From the UHGV virus genome UHGV-0175179: a stretch of 29,565 bases of DNA, one strand, 5' to 3'. Shown one piece after another: positions 2,853-9,638 of the stretch. Each line of letters begins with the position of its first letter. Position 1 is the first letter of the stretch. The notes under the pieces are model-generated. The model did not search any database and was not told the DNA's origin. It worked only from the letters and a program-made list of their open reading frames with translations. The DNA comes from a virus. The position numbers and the translations under genes were made by a program.

Positions 2853-3836
2853 ATGATTCGATCTCTCGTTAAATGGCCCGGTGGTAAAGGCCGCGTTATG
2901 CCTGATTTGCTGCCGATTCTGCCGAAAGCCGATTGCCTGGTGGAACCGTTTGTCGGCGGTGCTTCTGTTTTCCTCAATACTGAATATCGCCGTTATATCC
3001 TGGGTGATATAAACCCAGATTTAATTAACCTGTATCGCCAGATAGCCCGCTGGCCTGATGTGGTGATCGACGCTGCTCGCCCGCTGTTTAAAGTGTACGG
3101 TGATAAAGACGGCTATAAGTGGATCCGCGACGATTTCAACGCTCGCGCCCATGACCTTCTTTCATCGCGCAATGTGTTTGAGGACGGACCGGACGCGGGC
3201 AAGATTCTTCGTGCAGCACAGTTTCTTTACCTGAACCGTCACGGATATAACGGCGTAGTGCGCTACAACCAACAGGGCGGATATAACGTTCCCTTTGGTA
3301 GACACAAAACCCCGCCTTACTTCCCGGAAGAACAGATCCGTTTATTCTCTGAAAAAGCTAACGACACGAAAGCTATTTTCGTGTGCTGCGATTTCCAGAG
3401 CACGTTAAAAATCACGATTGGTAGTGACGCGGTTATCTACTGCGATCCGCCATACCTGCCAACAAGCGAAACCGCTAATTTCACCCAATACCACACCGCC
3501 CCGTTTGGGATTAAAGAGCATCGCCAGTTAGCTGCCGCCCTGCTGGATATTAACCGCCTTACTGGTTCGCCGGTGATCCTGTCCAACAGCGACACCCCTG
3601 CTACCCGCGAGATTTATCACACTTTCAACTTCCAGGAAATCAGCGTTAACCGTTCTGTCAGCGCGAACGCCATTACCAGAGGGGTCGCCAGTGAAGTGAT
3701 TGGCGTCCTGAAAGTGTGCAGCGGCTGCGGTCGTGCCGATGGTGGCCGTTGTCCTGACTGCGGCCCGGTAATGGGTGACGCGACCTACAACGAAATGCTG
3801 GCATCGGCTGCGGCCAATGGCGTGGAGGCTTTTTAA
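2853..3836 (+). CDS. dam: DNA adenine methyltransferase, Dam family, with a C-terminal Cys4 zinc-ribbon extension
   Basis: KWPGGK and LVEPFVGGASVFLNTEYRRYILGDINPDLINLY are near-identical in pattern to E. coli Dam (KWAGGK, LVEPFVGAGSVFLNTDF..YILADINSDLISLY). DPPY catalytic motif present (IYCDPPYLPT). The C-terminal ~45 aa add CSGCGRADGGRCPDCG. GGAGA RBS 8 nt upstream. Confidence 0.9.
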   Translation: MIRSLVKWPGGKGRVMPDLLPILPKADCLVEPFVGGASVFLNTEYRRYILGDINPDLINLYRQIARWPDVVIDAARPLFKVYGDKDGYKWIRDDFNARAHDLLSSRNVFEDGPDAGKILRAAQFLYLNRHGYNGVVRYNQQGGYNVPFGRHKTPPYFPEEQIRLFSEKANDTKAIFVCCDFQSTLKITIGSDAVIYCDPPYLPTSETANFTQYHTAPFGIKEHRQLAAALLDINRLTGSPVILSNSDTPATREIYHTFNFQEISVNRSVSANAITRGVASEVIGVLKVCSGCGRADGGRCPDCGPVMGDATYNEMLASAAANGVEAF

Positions 3837-4036
3837 TGGCAACCCGTATCGATGCAACTCAATCCGAATTTACCCGCGGTGCGCTGGCTGCGCTTAACGA
3901 AGCTAAAACCATTGCGCTTGCCCATGCGACGTTAGCGGGCGTTCTGGCTGGGCCTGACGTGGCTAATACATTGCTGATTTCTTTCAATACGTTATTAGAC
4001 CCGCTAATCGAAAAGCATTCACAACGGGAGGGTTAA
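3836..4036 (+). CDS. Hypothetical small protein (66 aa), translationally coupled between the two methyltransferase genes
   Basis: ATG overlaps the dam stop (TAATG). Ala/Leu-rich, no motif recognised. Confidence 0.4.
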   Translation: MATRIDATQSEFTRGALAALNEAKTIALAHATLAGVLAGPDVANTLLISFNTLLDPLIEKHSQREG

Positions 4037-4038
4037 TC

Positions 4039-5049
4039 GTGGGTGCTTTGGCTTACTACAACGAAATCGATCCATATGCAGCACAGTGGCTGCGCAACCT
4101 CATTGATGCCGGGCATATTGCGCCAGGCATTGTTGATACCCGTTCAATTGAGGATGTAACCCCCAATGACCTTAAAGGCTTTACTCAATGTCACTTCTTT
4201 GCCGGGATCGGTGTGTGGTCATATGCCCTGCGTCTTGTGGGCTGGCCGGACGACAAACCGATCTGGACTGGATCCTGCCCATGCCAGCCTTTCAGCCCGG
4301 CAGGCAAAGCAACTGGGTTTGATGACGAGCGGCACTTATGGCCCGCCTTTCATTGGCTCATTGCTCAGTGCCGCCCTGTCGTTGTCGCTGGCGAGCAATC
4401 TGGAAGCGCTAACGCGAACGTCTGGCTCGACCTTGTACAAACTGACATGGAAAGCCTGGGCTATGCCTTCGGGGCGGTCGCGTTTCCGTCTGCGAGCGTC
4501 GGTGCGCCACACATCCGGGACAGAGCTTACTGGGTGGCCGACACCAACGGCGAGCGCATGGAAACACCCTGGAAATCAGGGGAGGCAGGGAGGCTTGAAT
4601 TTGCAAACGGCCACAGCATTAGCTGGGTGGCCGACACCAACAACACAGAGCAACAACCAAATCTCAGGAGTTGGAGCGGCTGCAGATCACCCGAAGCGCG
4701 GGACAACTTTGGGCGGGGCTGCTCAGCTGTCGGGGTGGCCGACACCAGCTTCAAGGGACGGCAAGGGGGGGTATCAGGGCGGGAGGATGCGCAACGGGAA
4801 GCTGTCGACGGACACGCTGGATGTGACGGCGCAAATTGCGGGACCGGTCCGGTTAACGGTTTCTGGCGATCTGCTGACTGGCTGTATTGCCGGGATGGAA
4901 ACTGGAGGCCAGTTAAACCCGGACTTAAGCCGCTGGTTGATGGGGTTACCGGACGAGTGGGAAAAATCCGCGCCTACGGAAACGCTATCAACGTTGAAGC
5001 TGCAACAGCGTTCATAAAGGCTTATATGATGGGGGCGTCAAATGTCTGA
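4039..5049 (+). CDS. DNA cytosine-5 methyltransferase, phage orphan Dcm-like (GTG start); reading frame integrity uncertain
   Basis: Motif I-like FAGIGVW, motif IV PCQPFSPAG, motif VIII-like APHIRDRAYWVA and motif X-like RAYGNAINVEAATAFIKAY in this frame. GGGAGG 7 nt upstream of the GTG. The stop overlaps the gpA start. Confidence 0.8.
   Translation: MGALAYYNEIDPYAAQWLRNLIDAGHIAPGIVDTRSIEDVTPNDLKGFTQCHFFAGIGVWSYALRLVGWPDDKPIWTGSCPCQPFSPAGKATGFDDERHLWPAFHWLIAQCRPVVVAGEQSGSANANVWLDLVQTDMESLGYAFGAVAFPSASVGAPHIRDRAYWVADTNGERMETPWKSGEAGRLEFANGHSISWVADTNNTEQQPNLRSWSGCRSPEARDNFGRGCSAVGVADTSFKGRQGGVSGREDAQREAVDGHAGCDGANCGTGPVNGFWRSADWLYCRDGNWRPVKPGLKPLVDGVTGRVGKIRAYGNAINVEAATAFIKAYMMGASNV
4531..4749 (+). 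repeat. Three direct copies of a ~15-bp motif GGGTGGCCGACACCA inside the Dcm-like gene
   Basis: Copies at 4531-4548, 4623-4641 and 4732-4749, read directly from the sequence. They encode WVADTN / WVADTN / GVADTS in the gene frame and GWPTP three times in the overlapping frame. Confidence 0.8.
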
Positions 5050-7660
5050 CACCGCCTTTGCATGGCCCTGGAACGCGCCGCGCCAAGCTGTTGGCCTGTA
5101 CACCTACGAACCGAAAAAGATCGCCCCGCTTGCCGGGGCGGTGGCGCATCATCCTGCCGTAAAAAAACACATCGATCACATCTTCAAACGCGCCGGTTAC
5201 AACCCCGACGACGTTCGAGACCGTGACGCGCTGATCCAGTCGCTGGACAGGTACGAACCGTGCGGCCTGCCACTGGCCGCCCAACAAAATATCATCCGGC
5301 AGGAAAGTGCAGCCGCCAAAGCTGCGGCGGCTGCCTGGGCCAATACGCCGGAAGGTGTCGAAGCGCGTTTGTTGTCTGAGCCGTTCTTCATCCGCGAAGT
5401 CTGGCGCAAAAAAATTGAATGGTTACGGGCCAACCGTGAAACCAGACACACCAATGATTTTCTTATGGGGACCGTGAAAAAATCATTGCTGCGTCTCGAT
5501 GTTGTGCGCACAAGGCAAGGTGTTTCGCCTGATATCACCGGCGAACTGGCCGCGTACTGGTTCGGGCGCTGGCAACGACTGGCTGATTTCACAAAGCGGG
5601 AAGCACTAAGCGCCGCTAATGAGATCGCCAGCCGCATGACTGAAATGCTGGGGACGGAATGCGAAGCCCTGGGACGGAATGTTTCCGACATGAACGTCGA
5701 AGAACTGGACTGGCTTTATTGCCACATGGGCCGCGAAATGCTGGCGCTTCGTATTGTGCCGCCTGCATGGTATGCGCCGTGGGAACGCGAGCGCATATGC
5801 ACGGCCATTTTGCGTATGGCTTCGCCTGACTGGTGGGGGCGCAAAATCTGGCGCCTGCGTTGTGACTGGCGCGAAAACCAGCTGCGTGCTGTTGGCGCGG
5901 TAAATAAAAAAGCGCATCCGTATATTAGCGCATCAAGCCTGATGGAATGGCAGGAACAGCGACGTAAAAACCGTAATTTCTTCAAAAGTCATGAACTGGT
6001 AGACGAAGACGGCAACGTTTCGTCGCTTGAGGACATGATTAACAAATCCACGTCTAACCCTGCAATTCGTCGTCATGAGCTTATGGCCCGTATGGCTGGT
6101 GTGGAGCTTGTCGCCCAGAGCCGTGGCGATGTTGGCATCTTCCTGACCATCACTTGCCCGTCGAAATATCACGGCAATATTGCGTCCGGCCACCATAACG
6201 CAAAATGGAACTACGACACGGTTGCACAGGCGCAACGCTATTTATGCCGCGTATGGAACCGGGCAACCGCCAAACTGAAACGCGAAGATTTGCGCCCTTA
6301 TGGCTTCCGCGTCGCCGAGCCGCATCACGATGGGACGCCACACTGGCACGCGTTGTTATTTATGCCAAAAGAGCAAGTCAAAGCCACGGTTGCGATACTT
6401 CGCGCCTACTTCATTGCGGAAGACCGCGACGAGCTGGGCCGCAACACCGGTGCTCGCTTCAAGTCCAAAAAAATGGACCCACGGAAAGGGTCAGCAACGG
6501 CATACATCGCCAAATACATTTCGAAGAATATCGACGGTCACGCGCTGGCCGGTGAACTGGACGACGAAAGCGGCAAGCCGCTGAATGAAACAGCCAAATA
6601 TGCAATGGCCTGGGCGTCACTTCACCGCATCCGCCAGTTTCAGCCCATCGGACAGCCGCCCATATCGGTTTACCGCGAGCTGCGCAAACTGAGCAATCAG
6701 ATCACGACCCGCCAGAAAATTGACAATACCTTCAAGCGCGGTGCGCCGTTGCTTGTGGATCCTGCAATGGATGCGGTTTGCGCCGCTGCCGATGTCGGGT
6801 GCTTTGCTACCTACATCATCCGCCAGGGTGGTGTTTTGATCCCGCGTGAAAACTATGTCGTCCGTCTGGCCTATCAGCCAGCTGATGAAATGAATGCTTA
6901 TTGTGAGATCCCCGAAAAGGTTTTCGGGGTCTGGTCGCCGCGTCTGGGTGATGCCTCCCGTATTTGCACCCGTCTGGTTAAGTGGAAAATCCGCGCCAAA
7001 TCCAAAGCTACCACCGAGGCCAAAAACGGCCCCGGTTTGGGGGGTGACCTTTTGCCGTCGCCAACCGGCGACGCTTGGAGTTCTGTCAATAACTCTACGG
7101 AAGCCGAAAAAATCACCGATTTTTCGCCTGATGTGGAGGGGATGACAGAAGAATCAGAAGAGGAAATCGTCGATTTTGAAAACATGGACCAACCGACGCG
7201 GCGCAAATTGATGCGGCGACTACGTGAAACACCATTCAAAAGGCAGCAAAACGGATCACCTTATGAGCCAGGCAGCGAATTAGATGTCGCCTGGCGTTCT
7301 GCCGTGGAAAAAACCGAGGCCAGATCGGCGGCAGAAAAGGCCAGACGGGGGGCGCTTGCTCCTGCGGTTGCCAGCCTGCTAGCAGATGCGGCGTTGTATT
7401 CGGTTGAGATTTCAGAGATTCAGGCCGTTTCGCTGTTAATGGGGAGTTGTCTGGAAATTGGCGGCAAAGTTTATCGGGCCAGTGCTGACGGCCAGTTGAT
7501 AACGCGTCAATTACCCGACGAGTCACGGACGGTGAATAAATTATGGGAACGTCTGCGGGATAACCACGGCATAGATGCCACGCGCCTGCGGTTCGATCCT
7601 GCGGGTGAATACGCAAAGATGTTAACGAAAGCAATTAATTGCGCTGACAAAAAGGGGTGA
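5042..7660 (+). CDS. A: Replication initiation endonuclease, P2 gpA family (HUH rolling-circle initiator)
   Basis: HUH motif HWHALLF and active-site tyrosine motif SATAYIAKYISKNIDG, typical of P2 A-type initiators. 872 aa. Position after the early genes matches P2. Confidence 0.9.
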   Translation: MSDTAFAWPWNAPRQAVGLYTYEPKKIAPLAGAVAHHPAVKKHIDHIFKRAGYNPDDVRDRDALIQSLDRYEPCGLPLAAQQNIIRQESAAAKAAAAAWANTPEGVEARLLSEPFFIREVWRKKIEWLRANRETRHTNDFLMGTVKKSLLRLDVVRTRQGVSPDITGELAAYWFGRWQRLADFTKREALSAANEIASRMTEMLGTECEALGRNVSDMNVEELDWLYCHMGREMLALRIVPPAWYAPWERERICTAILRMASPDWWGRKIWRLRCDWRENQLRAVGAVNKKAHPYISASSLMEWQEQRRKNRNFFKSHELVDEDGNVSSLEDMINKSTSNPAIRRHELMARMAGVELVAQSRGDVGIFLTITCPSKYHGNIASGHHNAKWNYDTVAQAQRYLCRVWNRATAKLKREDLRPYGFRVAEPHHDGTPHWHALLFMPKEQVKATVAILRAYFIAEDRDELGRNTGARFKSKKMDPRKGSATAYIAKYISKNIDGHALAGELDDESGKPLNETAKYAMAWASLHRIRQFQPIGQPPISVYRELRKLSNQITTRQKIDNTFKRGAPLLVDPAMDAVCAAADVGCFATYIIRQGGVLIPRENYVVRLAYQPADEMNAYCEIPEKVFGVWSPRLGDASRICTRLVKWKIRAKSKATTEAKNGPGLGGDLLPSPTGDAWSSVNNSTEAEKITDFSPDVEGMTEESEEEIVDFENMDQPTRRKLMRRLRETPFKRQQNGSPYEPGSELDVAWRSAVEKTEARSAAEKARRGALAPAVASLLADAALYSVEISEIQAVSLLMGSCLEIGGKVYRASADGQLITRQLPDESRTVNKLWERLRDNHGIDATRLRFDPAGEYAKMLTKAINCADKKG

Positions 7661-7662
7661 GC

Positions 7663-7878
7663 ATGAAAATTATTATTGGACATAAGAAGCAAAATAATCA
7701 GTTAGATGTAGTTGTAAGTGCCTGGTGTTGGGAAATAGAGCAACTCAATAAGCTGACAAAAGAAGTGATCCGGGTGTTTTTTGTGGAGGGGGAAGCAACG
7801 TGCGTGCCGTCGTCATTTCTTCTGCGTCGTAAATACAAGGTAAGCGGGCCGGAAAGTTCTAAATCTTCCACCAGATAA
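7663..7878 (+). CDS. Hypothetical small protein (71 aa) in an AT-rich islet
   Basis: ATG at 7663 with AGGGG 5 nt upstream. Markedly lower G+C than the flanking phage genes (by eye). Followed by a terminator-like hairpin. Confidence 0.35.
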   Translation: MKIIIGHKKQNNQLDVVVSAWCWEIEQLNKLTKEVIRVFFVEGEATCVPSSFLLRRKYKVSGPESSKSSTR

Positions 7879-7892
7879 AACAGTCAATCGCG

Positions 7893-7925
7893 AAAACCTG
7901 CGTTACTTGTTGCGCGGGTTTTCAC
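7893..7925 (+). terminator. Putative intrinsic terminator of the early operon
   Basis: Stem CCTGCG (7897-7902) pairs with CGCGGG (7913-7918) around a 10-nt loop, followed by TTTT (7919-7922). Sits 15 nt after the stop of the 7663 ORF. Confidence 0.35.
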
Positions 7926-7989
7926 GATTCTGCGGGTGCGGGCGGCAAAGAGTCCGCATGTTTTGATTCTAAAAGTGAGATAAGAAAAA

Positions 7990-8205
7990 ATGAAAGCGAG
8001 TTATATCAGTTACTTTGAAGGTTACGATGCAATTGGCCGAATGATTTTTAATGGCAATGGTTCATGTTCGGTTGAATACGACGAGACTGAGGGAATCGAT
8101 CCTGAAGGGTTGCAGGTCGCGCATTGTGAGCATCTTTTAAAGGTGGCCCAGGCCAAAAATACCAGTGTCGTGAGAGTCACGATTAATAACATGATGAAAC
8201 TGTAA
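7990..8205 (+). CDS. Hypothetical small protein (71 aa) in an AT-rich islet
   Basis: ORF with ATG at 7990 and a weak RBS. Low G+C. Convergent with the ogr-like gene and separated from it by a hairpin terminator. Confidence 0.3.
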   Translation: MKASYISYFEGYDAIGRMIFNGNGSCSVEYDETEGIDPEGLQVAHCEHLLKVAQAKNTSVVRVTINNMMKL

Positions 8206-8221
8206 TTGTTATCAATTCCAA

Positions 8222-8253
8222 TAGTTAAAAAGCCCGCTTTATGCGGGCTTCGT
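8222..8253 (-). terminator. Rho-independent terminator, mainly for the leftward P-Q-ogr transcript (bidirectional hairpin)
   Basis: AGCCCGC / GCGGGCT stem with a 5-nt loop (8231-8249). On the minus strand it is followed by TTTTT; on the plus strand by a weaker T-rich tail. Confidence 0.5.
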
Positions 8254-8580
8254 TTATGCTGTCTGGCCGTTGAGCAGGTCCAGCGCGAATTGACGTTCTT
8301 CCGGCTTGAGCCGGTCAATCAGGAATTTAACCAGCTTGTTACCGGTCAGCCCGCTGGGGCTGAGAGTATGTGAAAACTGGGCGTTAAAAACAAAGGTATG
8401 GCCGCATTCAACTTCCGTGCAGGCGCAGTACAAATCAGCCAGTTTTTTGTCTTTCCAGTCAGATTTACGAATGATGGCCGGTGAGCCGCATTCAGGACAT
8501 TTAATTTTAAAAACTCGCATGTTCACCATCCCGCACGCCATTGCTAACAATGGGGATGATTTTAACTTAATTGCGCTCAT
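8254..8580 (-). CDS. ogr: Ogr/Delta-family zinc-finger late transcription activator (possible shorter form starting at 8520)
   Basis: CPECG...LYCACTEVECGHTFVF matches the Ogr/Delta C4 zinc-finger pattern (P2 Ogr CPLC...YHQCQNVNCSATFIT). The ATG at 8580 overlaps the portal stop (ATGA); an internal ATG at 8520 would give an Ogr-sized 89-aa product. Confidence 0.75.
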   Translation of the reverse strand: MSAIKLKSSPLLAMACGMVNMRVFKIKCPECGSPAIIRKSDWKDKKLADLYCACTEVECGHTFVFNAQFSHTLSPSGLTGNKLVKFLIDRLKPEERQFALDLLNGQTA

Positions 8581-9638
8581 TTTTCGCCCTTTTCGGCGGT
8601 GATTGCCGGGATATCCACGTCAAAAACCAGGTGCAAGTGTGCGGGGATCTCCGGGTCATTGTTGACGCCGTTCATTAGCTTGCGCTGCAACGGGATAACT
8701 TCATCCTTGCGATAGGTTGTGCGGGCGGTTTCAGGGTTGCCCATTACCGCGCCGTTGGTCGGGATGATACCCGCCAGGCCAGCGGGAAAACGGTGGGCGG
8801 TAAAGATATCCTGTGCGGTGATCCCTTTGATGTTGGCGAATTCATCCTTTGCGCTGACTTCGCCCACTGGCATGATTTTAACCCCTTCCGGGTCGCCCTT
8901 CGGGATGTTGATAAACATATTGCGGAAGTTACCCAGCCCTTTGGACTGGGCGATCTTCTCTTTGATTTCGTTTTCCATTTCCAGCGTGAGATTGGGATCG
9001 CTGGTATAGAGAATAAAGCCCATGTGCGCCCCGTTATTGTAGTAACGGCGGCGGAAAATGGTTGCCTCACTGTTGAGTAACACCGAATGGATGCCGCCGA
9101 TATAGTCAGGCAGGCCATATACCTGCTGGCGCGGGTCGTACATTTTAAAGAAAACGATGTCTTCCGGGTCATAGATAAGCGCTGGCCCTTCCTGCAGAAC
9201 AGCAAACGAGCCGTCTTTCCGGCAGCGCAGATACAGCGACGGCAGCGGCAGCAGGTCGATCACTTCCCCGAATACGTTACGAATTTTCAGGATAGCGACG
9301 TCACCAAACAGCAGGTAATCAAAGACAGCCTGTTCGACCTGGTCAGGCGTCAGGCCGCCGCCAATATAGCCACCGGCCACCATATTGCGCCGCGCATACA
9401 GCACCCCACCATGCTGGCCGTTAAGGTTCGGCAACTGGGCCAGCGCCAGGCGATCAATCGGGAGTCGCCAGTGGTCATATTCATTGTCATACCAGATATT
9501 GTGATAATCCGTGCCGGTCGTCAGGATGGGTTCGGGTTCGCCAAATGTGATCACGCTTCCGCGCCCTGGCGTGAAGGTTTCAACCTTGCTGCCGGTCATG
9601 GACCTGAATTTTTTATTATTACGCTGTTTCTTTGTCAT
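8577..9638 (-). CDS. Q: Portal protein, P2 gpQ-like
   Basis: 353 aa. Lies immediately downstream of the large terminase gene on the same strand with an ATGA overlap, as in P2 (P then Q). Size and sequence character match gpQ. Confidence 0.8.
   Translation of the reverse strand: MTKKQRNNKKFRSMTGSKVETFTPGRGSVITFGEPEPILTTGTDYHNIWYDNEYDHWRLPIDRLALAQLPNLNGQHGGVLYARRNMVAGGYIGGGLTPDQVEQAVFDYLLFGDVAILKIRNVFGEVIDLLPLPSLYLRCRKDGSFAVLQEGPALIYDPEDIVFFKMYDPRQQVYGLPDYIGGIHSVLLNSEATIFRRRYYNNGAHMGFILYTSDPNLTLEMENEIKEKIAQSKGLGNFRNMFINIPKGDPEGVKIMPVGEVSAKDEFANIKGITAQDIFTAHRFPAGLAGIIPTNGAVMGNPETARTTYRKDEVIPLQRKLMNGVNNDPEIPAHLHLVFDVDIPAITAEKGEK

Follow-up and report, generated by a model that had tools for sequence, protein, structure and literature searches.

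The interval between genes A and Q of P2-like phages is a hotspot for which 1,650 gene arrangements have been described (Rousset et al., 2022, PMC9122126). The order in P2 itself is A, orf91, tin, old, cos, Q. New anti-phage systems have demonstrably come from the gpA-to-portal interval of P2-like prophages, where small genes without annotation are candidates for defence or counter-defence. The closest sequenced phages to the locus described here are the Salmonella phages SI7, SW3 and SW5 (Peduoviridae, Irrigatiovirus), whose flanks share 93% nucleotide identity with it, and which are 95% identical in gpA (for SW5, the replication endonuclease) and 99% identical in the ogr-like and portal genes. 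Their gpA is followed by the same structured element as at our locus, and the cargo slot behind it holds a 66-aa ORF (ORF1b, 29% identity to ORF1) and a 230-aa D12-class adenine methylase. Both ORF1a and ORF2, the two small genes of the present locus, are absent from these phages, in which the islet itself is replaced. The type of hotspot is therefore already known; new here are two protein families without prior description and a conserved RNA-type element. No mention of these genes was found in the literature on phage AAM22 (see below) or on Irrigatiovirus.

The stretch of DNA analyzed (29,565 nt, hereafter the window) is a P2-family, Irrigatiovirus-like prophage of Citrobacter with the gene order integrase, early operon, gpA, convergent ogr-like gene, portal, terminase and late genes, and the genomic anatomy of the region of interest is secure (Table 1). 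The initial annotation had described two ORFs of about 71 aa with lower G+C than their surroundings, located where P2 has tin and old, and each bounded by a hairpin terminator. Both ORFs are intact and lie between the replication gene and the portal gene, at the P2-type hotspot position, and the islet (7661-8253) has a G+C content of 0.430, compared with 0.536 for the whole window and 0.551 for gpA, which puts it at the 1.8th percentile of the 593-nt windows of the same stretch. The hairpins were borne out as well, with one nuance: ORF2 is followed by a terminator-like G+C-rich hairpin that lies between the convergent ORF2 and ogr-like genes and is common to both, whereas ORF1 is followed not by a plain terminator but by a structured element of about 85 nt. 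Proteins identical to ORF1 and ORF2 are recorded in Citrobacter braakii and Citrobacter sp. under adjacent accession numbers, and a megablast search with the islet as query found no match among 5,426 complete E. coli genomes.

Table 1. Features of the gpA-to-portal region of the prophage (positions in the window)
Feature	Position	Strand	Remarks
gpA replication endonuclease	5042-7660	+	Pfam Phage_GPA, E 4.3e-106; last large gene of the early operon
ORF1 (ORF1a), 71 aa	7663-7878	+	ATG 7663 to TAA 7878
Structured non-coding element	7886-7969	+	hairpin 1, G-rich box, hairpin 2, T-run
Hairpin 1	7886-7929	+	19 pairs, ten with compensatory changes
G-rich box	7926-7956	+	GATTCTGCGGGKGCGGGCGGCAAAGAGYCCG; 31 nt, almost invariant; takes in hairpin 2
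Hairpin 2, terminator-like	7936-7959	+	followed by GTTTTGATT
T-run	7960-7969	+	directly 3' of hairpin 2
ORF2, 71 aa	7990-8205	+	ATG 7990 to TAA 8205
Terminator-like G+C-rich hairpin	8230-8250		8 pairs, 6 of them G-C; loop of 5; T-rich tail
ogr-like late activator, Ogr/Delta zinc finger	8254-8580	-	Pfam Ogr_Delta, E 2.6e-17; phrog_603, transcriptional regulator
Portal gene	8577-9638	-	overlapped by the ogr-like gene

The resemblance to P2 is one of map position and not of gene content. Old of P2 is a 586-aa ATPase-nuclease unrelated to ORF1 or ORF2, and profile comparison of the ORF1 family with Orf91 and of the ORF2 family with Tin gave an hhalign probability of 0.1%. Furthermore, old and tin of P2 are oriented in the opposite direction and have their own promoter, whereas ORF1 and ORF2 share the direction of gpA and lack a detectable promoter. 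The right border also differs from P2, in which ogr is found at the distal end of the late genes; in the present lineage the ogr-like gene stands between the slot and the portal gene, directly upstream of the latter, and forms the right border of the cargo.

Cargo at this position had been expected to vary across P2-like prophages, and comparison of the A-to-Q interval among relatives agreed with this expectation: gpA, ogr and portal genes were 80-100% identical, whereas the genes in the slot were quite different, even among near-identical prophages, and included recognised defence systems. The cargo of relatives whose ogr and portal genes match those of the window at 84-100% identity comprised, besides the genes of SW5 given above, an NsnA/PD-T4-2-like pair (E 1.7e-66), the KAP-NTPase PDC-S20 (E 6.7e-70), PARIS AriA/AriB, PDC-M68B and, in a Salmonella prophage (locus L005), HicA/HicB. 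In both E. coli genomes inspected (2 of 19 matching complete genomes) the slot was occupied by a gene for a 925-aa hypothetical protein. This protein (L069 1962-4739, L070 1944-4721) is unannotated and is a candidate single-gene defence cargo in its own right. Neither ORF1 nor ORF2 is a core gene at this position, as each is missing from many relatives.

Between gpA and the portal gene, conservation outside coding sequence is confined to the structured element that follows ORF1. This element is kept in 39 fetched loci in addition to the window (for example L001 3683-3770 and L069 about 1590-1670). Its structure is paired in 96% of alignment cells, compared with 35-44% in controls in which partner columns were slid, and the predicted RNA fold has an energy of -42 kcal/mol (z = -3.8). 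The frequent G-U pairs are compatible with the + strand only. Homology between loci ends right after the G-rich box, where the cargo begins, and the element thus marks the left border of a swappable gpA-to-portal slot. The T-run behind hairpin 2 is usual where a small ORF (ORF2 or ORF1b) comes next and is missing where a methylase or HicAB does. Searches of the element against Rfam returned no family, only sub-threshold noise, and no complement of the G-rich box was found elsewhere in the window.

As the only conserved non-coding DNA in this interval, the element was considered as a cos site, and this candidate was rejected on four counts. It is missing from L016-L022 despite the same ogr-portal module (84-99% identity), it is also found beside divergent portal genes (30-32% identity), its G-U pairs suit one strand only, and the best match of the 19-mer cohesive end of P2 in the window was 13 of 19, a score within the range of 13-16 that shuffled sequences reach. 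The most economical reading is that the element forms the structured 3' end of the early transcript, as a terminator or attenuator, and it might act in cis as a new regulatory RNA or be the source of a small RNA derived from that 3' end. If it is regulatory, the element would control how much transcription passes from the replication operon into the slot cargo, and it may explain how swapped cargo gets expressed; in the present lineage it is also a handy landmark of the slot. One hybrid prophage is instructive with respect to the left border (L051, IMG/VR 2526164670_000016, 5210-9360, reversed so that the element is on the + strand). Here a full gpA of another lineage (34% identity) is followed by a remnant comprising the last ~190 codons of an Irrigatiovirus-type gpA (84% identity); next come the element, a gene for a KAP-NTPase as cargo, and ogr and portal genes of the Irrigatiovirus lineage. 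The arrangement resembles a scar left by recombination at the left edge of the hotspot.

ORF1 begins 2 nt past the gpA stop codon with an AAGGGG ribosome-binding site ahead of it, and encodes a basic protein (pI 9.6) whose AlphaFold model (pLDDT 82.8) has a beta-beta-alpha-beta-beta fold and a disordered basic tail. A profile search recovered only 15 clusters in 5.8 billion, which shows that the family is very narrow and lineage-restricted; the six close clusters share 68-96% identity in a gap-free family alignment. The W-x-W motif of the family is invariant, and its tail is rich in R/K. More divergent homologues, with 28-29% ungapped identity, are the 66-aa hypothetical protein of SW5 and a 65-aa ORF of an Enterobacter prophage, and the residues W21, W23, G43, L54, R55 and G62 are invariant in this alignment. 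Two allelic forms can be distinguished by position: ORF1a lies between the gpA stop and the element, and ORF1b just downstream of the element. They never occur in the same locus among the fetched element-bearing loci. ORF1a is thus upstream of the swap junction and outside the swapped slot, yet it is itself present or absent; about half of the sampled Irrigatiovirus-like prophages have a member of the family, and neither form is present in roughly half of the loci, which identifies ORF1 as an accessory rather than a core gene.

ORF2 is the sole gene in the swappable slot of this prophage, and its protein is mildly acidic (pI 5.1) with a confidently modelled beta-beta-alpha-beta fold (AlphaFold pLDDT 93.8). 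An exhaustive profile search of 1.84 billion proteins yielded 34 representatives at 50% identity, nearly all of them stand-alone proteins of 66-72 aa with the motifs Y-I-x-Y-Y-E-G, N-G-N and R-V-V-I-K-N-x-x-K-L; the eighteen close clusters (54-90% identity) again align without gaps. Pairwise dN/dS was 0.08-0.35 for ORF2 and 0.18-0.40 for ORF1, with synonymous divergence often saturated in both. Together with the confident predicted folds, these ratios establish both ORFs as real genes, conserved as coding sequence.

The genomic contexts of ORF2 extend well beyond the present lineage. In several P2-like lineages with a gpA 34-37% identical to that of the window, ORF2 follows directly after gpA with a gap of 15-24 nt, and in other P2-like phages a single base separates its start from the stop of the gene for a 228-aa methylase; within P2-like phages its strand is always that of gpA. 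A methylase of the same family adjoins ORF2, in either order, in 10 of 13 P2-like loci from IMG/VR, although these loci may share ancestry, and the pairing recurs in L067. This family is a divergent D12-class, Dam-like adenine methylase. In several P2-like hotspots, a further recurrent neighbour of ORF2-family genes is a DUF4760 protein of about 167 aa on the opposite strand (L013 5262-5765, L045/L083, L067 2014-2517). Relatives with 35-44% identity occur in Pantoea phage AAM22, Acinetobacter phage LAPP1 and Pseudomonas phage 15b. AAM22 is a myovirus with its own DNA polymerase, helicase and primase and no annotated integrase. Its gp05 (vB_PagM_AAM22) and the LAPP1 protein AXX01_00062 are full-length homologues (44%), and the two genes are arranged alike, each as the last in a run of small overlapping ORFs (early-gene or 'moron' cassettes) beside a MuF-like head gene. 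These phages are of another type than the prophage studied here (~49 kb, with their own replication genes), and their cassette is located between the MuF-like gene and the prohead protease rather than after a replication gene.

Although adjacent in this prophage, ORF1 and ORF2 do not travel together. Among the fetched element-bearing loci all four combinations of presence and absence were found. ORF1a, always starting right after gpA, was present in seven of them, with ORF2 as the gene downstream in three, a methylase in three and HicAB in one. It occurs without ORF2 in L002-L005, and ORF2 occurs without ORF1a in eight element-bearing loci (L006, L007, L038, L045, L049 and L059-L061) and in every context outside Irrigatiovirus. 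ORF1a and ORF2 were found as a pair in L062/L063 and in genomes of Citrobacter braakii, and beyond these only in the window. Distant homology between the two proteins was considered and rejected (hhalign probability 0.1%). The islet is therefore not one module but two unrelated single-gene accessory cassettes, one on each side of the structured element.

Neither protein could be assigned to a described family. As the initial annotation had noted, no motif was recognisable in either ORF: Pfam, NCBIfam and PHROGs gave no family match, the PADLOC defence models gave no family at E values up to 1, and the PDB gave neither a sequence nor a fold match. Profile and structure-based searches of both products thus led to no known family or fold, and the suggested defence module found no counterpart among the described defence proteins covered by these databases. 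Nor was there any resemblance, in sequence or fold, to a solved structure among the known anti-defence proteins (Ocr, Ard, Acr, Tad, Gad and similar).

Given these distributions, our preferred reading, which we hold tentatively, is that the islet contains two independent accessory genes at the tail of the early operon, most likely acting in the lytic cycle and possibly in counter-defence. Timing and function are here inferred from sequence comparison. ORF1 would probably be made together with gpA, given that it starts 2 bases past the gpA stop with its own ribosome-binding site. For ORF2, a simple consensus scan found no sigma-70-like site between 7879 and 7989, and its start lies ~20 nt behind the terminator-like hairpin and T-run; its expression is thus probably weak and dependent on read-through from the early operon. 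The proposed expression from the early transcript suggests that both are most likely lytic-cycle proteins. Their small size, single-domain folds and lack of catalytic motifs point to proteins that most likely bind another protein or a nucleic acid. For ORF2 our best guess is host modulation or counter-defence, which draws on the recurrent link to an orphan Dam-like methylase and on the occurrence of the family in a phage without annotated integrase. Against this best guess, ORF2 is only mildly acidic and has no likeness to known anti-defence proteins, and a relative of it in L064-L066 belongs to a late operon (see below). As separate genes with different distributions, ORF1 and ORF2 should be studied one at a time during lytic growth and for effects on restriction-type defences, and not as a toxin-antitoxin or defence operon.

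A reading in which ORF2, and perhaps ORF1, provides a new single-gene anti-phage or superinfection-exclusion function from the prophage, in the manner of P2 tin and old, is unlikely but deserves a serious hearing. ORF2 occupies the slot in which relatives have PARIS, HicAB, NsnA-like and KAP-NTPase systems, the G+C content of the islet is low, and hotspot genes of unknown function are reported to be often defensive (PMC9122126; preprint 10.64898/2026.02.27.708500). The latter work reported phage protection by 6 of 8 tested P4 satellite loci with only genes of unknown function and predicted 15-32% of unknown P2 proteins to be antiviral, findings which keep a defence role plausible. Other evidence runs counter to it. 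Besides the lack of a PADLOC, Pfam or NCBIfam match, ORF2 has no detectable promoter and sits behind a terminator-like hairpin, other lineages have it co-oriented and tightly packed behind gpA or a methylase, a homologue is found in a myovirus without annotated integrase and in blocks of small genes, and a 71-aa single domain has no evident sensor-plus-effector architecture. The presence of the family in a phage without annotated integrase, and its usual location in an early operon, argue for a lytic-cycle role over prophage exclusion, and ORF2 is less likely to be a defence gene expressed from the prophage.

A broader and more speculative proposal goes beyond our preferred reading, and we consider it improbable as a whole: ORF2 and the ORF1a/ORF1b alleles would be new families of small early counter-defence proteins acting alongside Dam-like methylases, and the element a new regulatory RNA. 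If the counter-defence part were true, the 'defence' hotspot of P2 would also hold offensive cargo.

Quite unlikely, in our judgement, is a role in the core biology of the phage, with ORF1 as an auxiliary factor of gpA rolling-circle replication (for example a nucleic-acid-binding protein) and ORF2 in head assembly or packaging. ORF1a does always abut gpA, and its family is basic with the W-x-W motif and R/K-rich tail described above, but in loci with ORF1b the element stands between this gene and gpA. ORF2 relatives lie by portal or MuF-type genes in unrelated groups, namely P2-like phages, AAM22 and LAPP1, and the prophages L064-L066, although their vicinity to head genes in P2-like phages may just reflect the location of the hotspot. 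About half of the close prophages have no form of ORF1 and many have no ORF2, and this absence from many closely related prophages indicates that neither gene is needed for replication or assembly. In L064-L066 the ORF2 relative lies inside a late head-gene operon, between MuF-like and scaffold genes, so that expression timing is not uniform across the family and a capsid-related role is possible. The ORF2-family genes beside MuF-like genes are located at 4001-4204 in L064-L066, at 4001-4219 in AAM22 (L030) and at 4001-4210 in LAPP1 (L031). In one of the two non-P2 groups the gene is co-directional and begins 2 bases past the end of the MuF-like gene, and in the other it is convergent and overlapping. 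This adjacency may be a coincidence or a hint of a capsid-linked role.

The toxin-antitoxin-like module proposed in the initial annotation can be set aside as highly improbable. Two neighbouring small ORFs on the same strand, one basic and one acidic, would suit such a system, and they are found side by side again in L062/L063 and in genomes of Citrobacter braakii. HicA/HicB, a type II toxin-antitoxin system, likewise consists of two small neighbouring genes in a prophage hotspot and even uses the same slot in L005; there, however, this genuine pair replaces ORF2 alone and not both genes. ORF1 and ORF2 differ from HicA/HicB in that they show no obligate co-occurrence, each being found without the other in many loci, are not organised as an operon pair and have no counterpart among toxin or antitoxin families, and the 111 nt between them hold the conserved hairpin and terminator-like element. 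Independent assortment, unrelated families and a structured terminator-like element in between thus led us to reject a toxin-antitoxin-like pair. The shortness, A+T-richness and lack of a family match of the two ORFs might suggest frames that arose by chance or are in decay within A+T-rich spacer DNA; this reading is refuted by purifying selection at saturated synonymous divergence, by length and motifs conserved ungapped to ~35% identity from Citrobacter to Acinetobacter and Pseudomonas phages, and by the high-confidence folds.

The early operon upstream of gpA contains two DNA methylase genes of its own on the + strand (2853-3836 and 4039-5049), and this phage is thus heavily invested in DNA modification even without a methylase in the slot. 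One of the two encodes a C5-cytosine methylase (Pfam E 1.8e-12), and the other, an ORF of 327 aa, corresponds to a gene for a D12-class adenine methylase in L002. We also considered an SOS-controlled antirepressor cassette of the phage 186 tum type, which lies at this map position, and rejected it because the LexA box CTGT-N8-ACAG occurs nowhere in the window. A LexA-box-like dyad of the same form was observed in two relatives, after the element and upstream of an orphan methylase of 230-239 aa (L002 ~5300-5320, L004 ~730-750), which suggests that the methylase cargo of these two loci may be under SOS control.
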